476 bases of DNA, taken from NCBI RefSeq assembly GCF_003334385.1, contig NZ_QOWN01000176.1; one strand, written 5' to 3'. The stretch's first letter is position 1; every line of letters starts with the position of its first letter. The notes beneath the pieces were generated by a model. It had not been told where the DNA came from. It saw nothing but the letters and a program-made list of their open reading frames with translations, and made no database searches. The DNA is from Escherichia coli. Its GTDB lineage: Bacteria; Pseudomonadota; Gammaproteobacteria; Enterobacterales; Enterobacteriaceae. Made by a program: the position numbers and the translations under genes. Below, one piece after another: positions 1 through 476 of the stretch.

Positions 1-107
1 TCAACCGGCCCTTCGCTGATGGCATCGATCACACTCAGCAACTGCGTGGACTTCAGGTTGTCCTTCGCTTCGCGCGGGGTATGCCCCTTACTGCTTCCTT
101 TACCCAT
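1..107 (-). CDS. J: Tip attachment / host specificity protein J (central tail fibre), N-terminal 35 codons only; gene continues beyond position 1
   Basis: Hand translation of the minus strand from ATG (complement of 105..107) gives MGKGSSKGHTPREAKDNLKSTQLLSVIDAISEGPV with no stop before the window edge. This matches the N-terminus of lambda gpJ as I recall it. It lies directly downstream of gene I with a 60-nt spacer, as in lambda, and is preceded by GGAG with an 8-nt spacer. It is absent from the ORF track because it is truncated by the window. Confidence 0.85.
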   Translation of the reverse strand, partial: MGKGSSKGHTPREAKDNLKSTQLLSVIDAISEGPV

Positions 108-119
108 TCCTCACGCTCC
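108..119 (-). promoter_or_regulatory. Ribosome-binding site (Shine-Dalgarno) for J
   Basis: Minus-strand sequence immediately upstream of the J ATG reads TGGAGCGTGAGGA-ATG. GGAG (complement of 116..119) sits 8 nt before the ATG, which is good spacing; a second purine-rich GAGGA abuts the start codon. Confidence 0.6.
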
Positions 120-120
120 A

Positions 121-149
121 TAAATGACAAAACCGCCCGCAGGCGGTTT
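121..149 (-). other. Intergenic stem-loop followed by a U-rich tract on the sense strand (candidate weak intrinsic terminator or mRNA structural element between I and J)
   Basis: Perfect inverted repeat: 130..137 aaaccgcc and 142..149 ggcggttt, with a 4-nt loop at 138..141. On the minus (sense) strand this reads AAACCGCC-TGCG-GGCGGTTT followed by TGTCATTTA, i.e. a 5-bp GC core extended by A-U pairs, then an interrupted U-tract (complement of 121..129). Confidence 0.4.
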
Positions 150-167
150 CACATAAAACATTTTGCA

Positions 168-476
168 TCAGCGACCAATCACCACAACCTGACCACCGTC
201 CCCTTCGTCTGCCGTGCTGATCTCCTGAGAAACCACGCGTGACCCCACGCGCATTTCCCCGTACAGAACAGGCAGAACATTGCCCTGGGCAACCATGTTA
301 TCCAGTGAGGAGAAATAGGTGTTCTGCTTACCGTTATCCGTTGTCTGTGTACGGGGAGTTCTGGCTTTCGGTGCCAGCATCTGCGCCACACCACCGAGCA
401 CCATACTGGCACCGAGAGAAAACAGGATGCCGGTCATACCACCGGCCCCAATGGCTGCCCCCCATGCTGCAAGGGT
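168..476 (-). CDS. I: Tail assembly protein I (lambda gpI-like), C-terminal 102 codons plus stop; 5' end lies beyond position 476
   Basis: The 89-aa ORF in the track (MTGILFSLGASMVLGGVAQMLAPKARTPRTQTTDNGKQNTYFSSLDNMVAQGNVLPVLYGEMRVGSRVVSQEISTADEGDGGQVVVIGR) matches the C-terminus of lambda gpI as I recall it. The same frame stays open upstream of the ATG at 435..437 to the window edge, encoding ...TLAAWGAAIGAGG before MTGIL, so that ATG is an internal Met and not the true start. Stop codon TGA is the complement of 168..170. Confidence 0.92.
   Translation of the reverse strand, partial: TLAAWGAAIGAGGMTGILFSLGASMVLGGVAQMLAPKARTPRTQTTDNGKQNTYFSSLDNMVAQGNVLPVLYGEMRVGSRVVSQEISTADEGDGGQVVVIGR

Follow-up and report, generated by a model that had tools for sequence, protein, structure and literature searches.

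An 89-codon reading frame in a lambda-type segment of Escherichia coli DNA as the C-terminal part of the tail-tip protein gpI

The window, meaning the whole 476-nt stretch of DNA that was analysed, is the reverse complement of phage lambda 15136-15611 (NC_001416 / J02459) and lies on the opposite strand, with 474 of 476 positions identical (99.6%) by megablast against phage records. In the same search, Escherichia phage PhiR30_1 matched the whole window at 476/476 (100%). In both phages the match falls under CDS I and CDS J. The window is also 100% identical to many E. coli prophages. Among complete E. coli genomes, 4297 of 5426 carry the same segment, annotated as 'tail assembly protein' and 'gpJ', and 658 records are at least 99% identical to it. 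Because the segment matches lambda, PhiR30_1 and many E. coli genomes, the source of the window is, judged by these matches, a lambda-type phage or prophage. The features are as follows.

168..476, minus strand: 3' part of gene I, codons 122-223 at 476..171 and the TGA stop at 170..168 (translation, DNA identity to PhiR30_1 and lambda, residue numbering, PDB chains 8iyk_I and 9e7m).
435..437, minus strand: ATG of gpI Met135, at which the ORF track starts (place in the 223-aa protein).
369..476, minus strand: gpI codons 122-157, the C-terminal two thirds of a Gly/Ala-rich segment of residues about 99-157 (composition, hydropathy).
315..365, minus strand: gpI codons 159-175, the 'plug' segment, which holds I164T at window position 349 (limits from PMC11101478, SNP mapping).
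171..314, minus strand: gpI codons 176-223, the C-terminal beta-strand region (invariant columns in an 18-sequence alignment, PMC10721106).
108..167, minus strand: I-J intergenic spacer of 60 nt (fold, conservation, RBS feature in OM418625).
119..116, minus strand: ribosome-binding site of gene J, GGAG (RBS feature in record OM418625).
1..107, minus strand: start of gene J, codons 1-35 and 2 nt, with the ATG at 107..105 (translation MGKGSSKGHTPREAKDNLK..., CDS J in lambda and PhiR30_1).

The product of J is the central tail fibre or host specificity protein. The 5' 121 codons of gene I lie past window position 476. The plus-strand ORFs 19..123 and 81..242, which overlap I or J antisense or out of frame, and the other minus-strand frames 179..412 and 334..465, which overlap them out of frame, were rejected; each is a gene in 0 annotated records. 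The promoter scan found no promoter in the window. With a permissive threshold, Rfam gave for the window only a sub-threshold chance match to the SpF10 sRNA on the antisense strand (20.5 bits where the gathering score is 60, E 0.23). Two terminator-like matches inside I (446..429 and 287..273), where 0.4 ± 0.6 were expected, have a weak consensus, lie in the coding region and were taken as chance.

Translation of the minus strand from 476 to 168 gives TLAAWGAAIGAGGMTGILFSLGASMVLGGVAQMLAPKARTPRTQTTDNGKQNTYFSSLDNMVAQGNVLPVLYGEMRVGSRVVSQEISTADEGDGGQVVVIGR followed by the stop, that is, 102 codons and a stop codon with no internal stop. The ORF lister gave 168..437 on this strand as an ORF of 89 aa with an ATG start; its track begins at an internal Met because ORFs that run off the window go unlisted. 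An earlier sequence-only reading had claimed that the 13 codons before the ATG at 435..437 are open and had listed their residues, and the translation, TLAAWGAAIGAGG-M-TGILFSL...VVVIGR and stop, bears this out. It had also described a Gly/Ala-rich hydrophobic stretch that spans the Met. Such a stretch was found: residues 99-157 contain 13 Gly and 14 Ala among 59 residues, and the Kyte-Doolittle means over 19 residues are 1.2-1.8 and exceed 1.2 over most of residues 99-157, on both sides of Met135. With random codons, the chance of 13 stop-free codons is about 0.54 and that of the full 102-codon open frame about 0.007. Taken alone, the 13-codon run is no evidence, and homology is decisive.

The residues encoded in the window equal lambda gpI 122-223 at 101 of 102 positions. 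The extension past position 476 was read from records that are 100% identical over the 476 bases, together with lambda. In PhiR30_1 and lambda the I frame stays open for 124 codons past position 476, and 134 codons upstream of Met135 are open. The in-frame stop just past 476 that, on the earlier reading, would have made the 437 ATG the real start is absent from both. The full-length gpI of an identical record matched chain I of PDB 8iyk/8iyl/8k35/8xcg over 223 aa with an E value of 2.6e-141, and PDB 9e7m matches residues 133-222. Pfam PF06805 (Lambda_tail_I) was found at residues 14-97 (E 2e-28) on the ORF of a record identical to the window; this N-terminal domain lies wholly outside the window. 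PHROG 32, 'tail assembly protein', covers residues 12-214 of full-length gpI. When the window fragment was searched alone, it matched only the C-terminal half of PHROG 32 (profile positions 113-202 of 203, E 8.9e-38), and PHROG 4554 was matched in its C-terminal half with an E value of 1.9e-54. No NCBIfam model matches gpI or the window fragment.

The gene order K-I-J is kept. J starts at window position 107, and K lies directly upstream of I, overlapping it, in lambda, PhiR30_1 and five other phages. In an alignment of 18 homologues, the columns G143-P157 and T167-G222 are invariant; the most conserved block is TDNGKQNTYFSSLDN...PVLYGEM.VGSR, within codons 176-223. Sequence, the PF06805 domain, the hydrophobic helices with the C-terminal block, and K-I-J synteny all place the product in the gpI family. 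The stretch 168..476 on the minus strand is almost certainly the last 102 codons and the stop of a lambda-type gene I whose true start lies outside the window. The earlier claims that the 437 ATG is internal and that the I frame leaves the window are thereby upheld, the ATG being Met135 of gpI. So is the warning against annotating the 89-aa ORF as a complete small protein, since the ORF is the C-terminal 40% of the 223-aa gpI. What was found is already known: it is lambda gene I itself, in a common allele.

Gene I starts are inconsistent in public records, which give 223, 210, 201 or 190 aa as follows.

223 aa, ATG: lambda GenBank, RefSeq and CPT records.
210 aa, ATG (Met14): PGAP records; the largest NCBI cluster, 5268 members (P0012).
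201 aa, TTG: ev207 RefSeq.
190 aa, GTG overlapping the K stop: PhiR30_1 and PhiR26_1.

All of these starts lie far upstream of Met135. The sequence-only reading had proposed extending the window by about 400 bp to the first start with an RBS and comparing the length with lambda gpI, put at about 220 aa. Counted from the upstream stop, the first start is the ATG of L001 2138 (lambda 14773), 363 nt past position 476, which yields 223 aa and has an SD; an in-frame TGA lies 11 codons above it. The SD of this Met1 ATG, GAGAGAGG, forms the best anti-SD duplex among the candidates, with -9.3 kcal/mol, against -2.5 kcal/mol for Met14 and +0.4 kcal/mol for GTG34.

The choice between the starts was made from start codons and the presence or absence of an SD in divergent phages. 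The conservation of codons 1-34 was not used, because K overlaps there in another frame and makes it no independent evidence; the overlap of the Met1 start with the end of gene K is 103 nt (L001/L002 2138-2240). The Met1 ATG and its SD (GAGAGG/GGGAGAGG) are kept in 7 of 7 loci examined, and of the four public starts Met1 is the only one of which this is true. Among these loci are those of YYZ-2008 and Stx2_12E129, two Stx-type phages of about 72% identity, which have a non-start Leu codon at the Met14 position. The gene could have been identified correctly and still begin at Met14 (210 aa) or at the GTG that overlaps the stop of K (190 aa). The Pfam and PHROG profiles begin at about residue 12-14, the 210-aa form heads the NCBI clusters, and GTG34 makes a tidy GTGA overlap with the K stop. 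However, the SD of Met14 is weak, and its residue is L, V, D or H in other homologues. GTG34 has no SD, and a start there would cost the PF06805 domain its first 20 residues, a strongly conserved part. Judged by codon and SD conservation, a start other than Met1 at one of these two sites is rather improbable, and Met14 itself is an improbable start, whereas Met1 is likely to be the start used. The true start is thus most probably the ATG equivalent to lambda 14773. The verdict on the 89-aa ORF is the same whichever of the upstream starts applies.

A second possibility is that full-length gpI is made and that Met135 serves in addition as a secondary start, yielding an 89-residue C-terminal isoform that makes up the whole or part of the gpI in the tail tip. 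Two independent cryo-EM models begin where the 89-aa ORF starts, since gpI was modelled as residues 135-223 in one (PMC10721106, S1 Table) and as 134-222 in the other (PMC12617516). Virion mass spectrometry (PMC10721106, PLoS Biology) reported a sole gpI peptide with 9.87% coverage, a figure that fits only the C-terminal tryptic peptide 202-223 (22 of 223 residues). There is also a moderate anti-SD match upstream of the Met135 ATG, with a duplex of -6.0 kcal/mol. In the closed tail structure, however, gpI was resolved from residue 101 on (PMC11101478), so that at least some virion gpI is longer and the polypeptide runs on without a break across residue 135. Only 2 nt separate the SD-like purines from the ATG, and these purines are base-paired in a hairpin. 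This hairpin, in window 425-450 on the minus strand, has -13.8 kcal/mol and a z score of -2.5, and carries the ATG in its 6-nt loop; its stem pairs the only SD-like purine run nearby and is followed by a T-rich tail. Its presence probably just reflects the Gly codons (GGN) of the region. The missing N-terminal peptides weigh little, since tryptic peptide 99-158 has 60 residues and is hydrophobic and most N-terminal peptides are short.

Residue 135 itself is poorly conserved. Among 103 homologues of comparable length and the same architecture, it is Met in 26, and in the other 77 it is a gap (39), I (17), L (9), V (8), F (3) or A (1), while Met is invariant at positions 146 and 154. A C-terminal form that arises by internal initiation or by processing was considered very unlikely because of the structure from residue 101, the non-conserved Met135 and the poor initiation context. 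It is equally hard to credit that, in Met135-bearing lambda-type phages, the 89-residue form rather than full-length gpI is incorporated in the tail tip to form the plug. Met135 is simply an internal residue, located in the second of the hydrophobic helices, and no initiation codon.

The least tenable reading, that the 89-codon ORF (ATG 437 to stop 168) is a complete, independent small protein below a frame left open by chance, can draw on the ATG-initiated call of the ORF lister and on the insignificance of 13 open codons alone, but it is virtually excluded by the 134 open upstream codons of the identical records, which encode PF06805 and a conserved hydrophobic helix, by the minority status of Met135 among homologues and by the virion gpI resolved from residue 101. 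No public record examined annotates an 89-aa gene I product; all products are 190-226 aa. A stand-alone 89-aa gene would have a usable, conserved RBS and start and no upstream homology; the SD found here is too close to the ATG and paired, and homology extends 134 codons upstream. Homology continuous across residue 135 already refutes an independent small protein.

As the C-terminal part of gpI, the encoded segment belongs to a virion protein present in three copies inside the tail-tip cone. The gpI trimer is a plug inside the gpJ/gpL cone; it holds the gpH C-terminus, and the coiled coil at the C-terminal end of the tape-measure protein rests on it (PMC10721106; PMC12617516). Its plug segment, residues 159-175, blocks the lumen of the tail tip (PMC11101478), residues 137-152 are hydrophobic (PMC10721106), and the C-terminal strands pass between the hub domains of gpJ, which they bind through beta-sheet augmentation (PMC10721106). 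The helices H1 and H2 are predicted to be transmembrane and are no longer seen in the tip once it has opened (PMC11101478). Binding of gpJ to LamB moves the hub domains outward, the plug falls apart and the helices leave the tip, after which gpI is ordered only from residue 167 on; the authors suggest that the two helices become inserted in the outer membrane (PMC11101478). The PF06805 domain is seen in none of the lambda tail maps (PMC11101478, PMC10721106, PMC12617516). In virions it may be mobile, lost by cleavage or absent from the outset.

By sequence identity to the solved lambda structures, the part of gpI encoded in the window comprises the last part of H1 and the whole of H2, followed by the plug of residues 159-175 and the strands that extend the gpJ beta-sheets. 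In the corresponding phage, binding of gpJ to LamB would draw the hub domains apart and loosen the plug, the hydrophobic helices would leave the tip, and, if the authors' proposal holds, they would then insert into the outer membrane. At 99% identity to lambda, the structural role, a trimeric plug with LamB-triggered release, may be expected to carry over to the window sequence.

The I-J spacer contains a perfect GC-rich hairpin at window 152..127 on the minus strand, GUGAAACCGCC-UGCG-GGCGGUUUUGU, followed by a U-rich CAUUUAU and read in the same sense as I and J. Its folding energy is -16.5 kcal/mol (z -3.8), and it is conserved in lambda-like phages, in which changes fall in the loop or lead to G-U pairs. 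Placed within the late operon just before the J RBS, it resembles an intrinsic terminator or a hairpin that stabilises mRNA. The terminator pattern scanner missed it because a G-U extension of the stem consumes part of the T-run. In the Stx-type spacer of phage YYZ-2008 (L008 981-1004, 1018-1050), a hairpin of unrelated sequence with 10 bp, a tetraloop and a U-run stands before J; it was flagged as terminator-like, with -23.1 kcal/mol and a z score of -5.5. Right after this hairpin, just before the J RBS, lie three to four CAGACAT heptamer repeats. The presence of a hairpin at the same position in a divergent Stx-type lineage suggests a function.

The records used for the extension also differ in gene K. 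At L002 about 1631 (lambda about 14266), the lambda reference reads GGAGGC-TATTTCC, without one G, against GGAGGCGTATTTCC in PhiR30_1. K is a single 247-aa ORF in PhiR30_1; because the lambda reference lacks this G, its K is split into ORFs of 76 and 199 aa, of which only the 199-aa one is annotated. An inserted G at 14266 presumably figures in the list of corrections to the lambda sequence of 1982.

The case of the 89-codon ORF matters as annotation hygiene only. An ORF call on a short window produces a false 89-aa 'small hydrophobic protein', while the real product of this stretch is the C-terminal 40% of a 223-aa structural protein. Two practical points are that gene I has four public starts, among which the comparative evidence favours the classical 223 aa, and that the hydrophobic linker holding Met135 is the fastest-varying part of gpI.

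Among known systems, lambda gpI (tail tip assembly or 'insertion' protein I, 223 aa; PDB 8IYK, 8IYL, 8K35, 8XCG, 9E7M) is like the window in K-I-J order, in the 60-nt I-J spacer with its hairpin and in the J start, and differs by one gpI residue, I164T in the plug. Both differences from lambda in the window are non-synonymous, namely gpI I164T (window 349) and gpJ I35V (window 5). At gpI position 164 the window residue, T, is the commonest, with 41 of 103 homologues, whereas the lambda residue, I, occurs in 1 of 103. By these residue counts, the lambda laboratory allele (Ile164) is the unusual one.

The gpI homologues of lambdoid prophages and Stx-converting phages (PF06805, PHROG 32) share the N-terminal domain, the Gly/Ala-rich linker and the invariant C-terminal block, and their start ATG and SD are conserved. 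They differ in the hydrophobic linker, which is variable, has indels of 10-12 residues and mostly lacks Met135. The I-J spacer of the Stx-type phages is about 250 nt long, compared with 60 nt in the lambda type. Variability in gpI is greatest at residues 99-141 (window 417-476 and beyond), which make up the first hydrophobic helix and the turn that leads to H2; many homologues have 10-12-residue deletions or AWWNP/VGW-type replacements there. H2 (GASM.LGGVAQMLAP) and the C-terminal block show almost no variation.

In phage T5, the plug domain of the baseplate hub protein pb3 forms a trimeric tripod, shuts the tail-tip channel at the corresponding place and has a hydrophobic segment that is proposed to contact the outer membrane (PMC10721106). 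The T5 plug is a domain of one large hub protein, whereas lambda gpI is a separate gene product, and the likeness between the two would be a functional analogy, as drawn in PMC10721106. Two structures of a 'putative tail assembly protein' of about 200 aa, 9L9P chain A and 25VF chain 9, align with gpI residues 19-200 and 11-209 (E 1e-20 and 5e-18, respectively) at low identity. Because these alignments run over nearly the full length of gpI, the N-terminal domain and the C-terminal part are one protein in distant relatives too.
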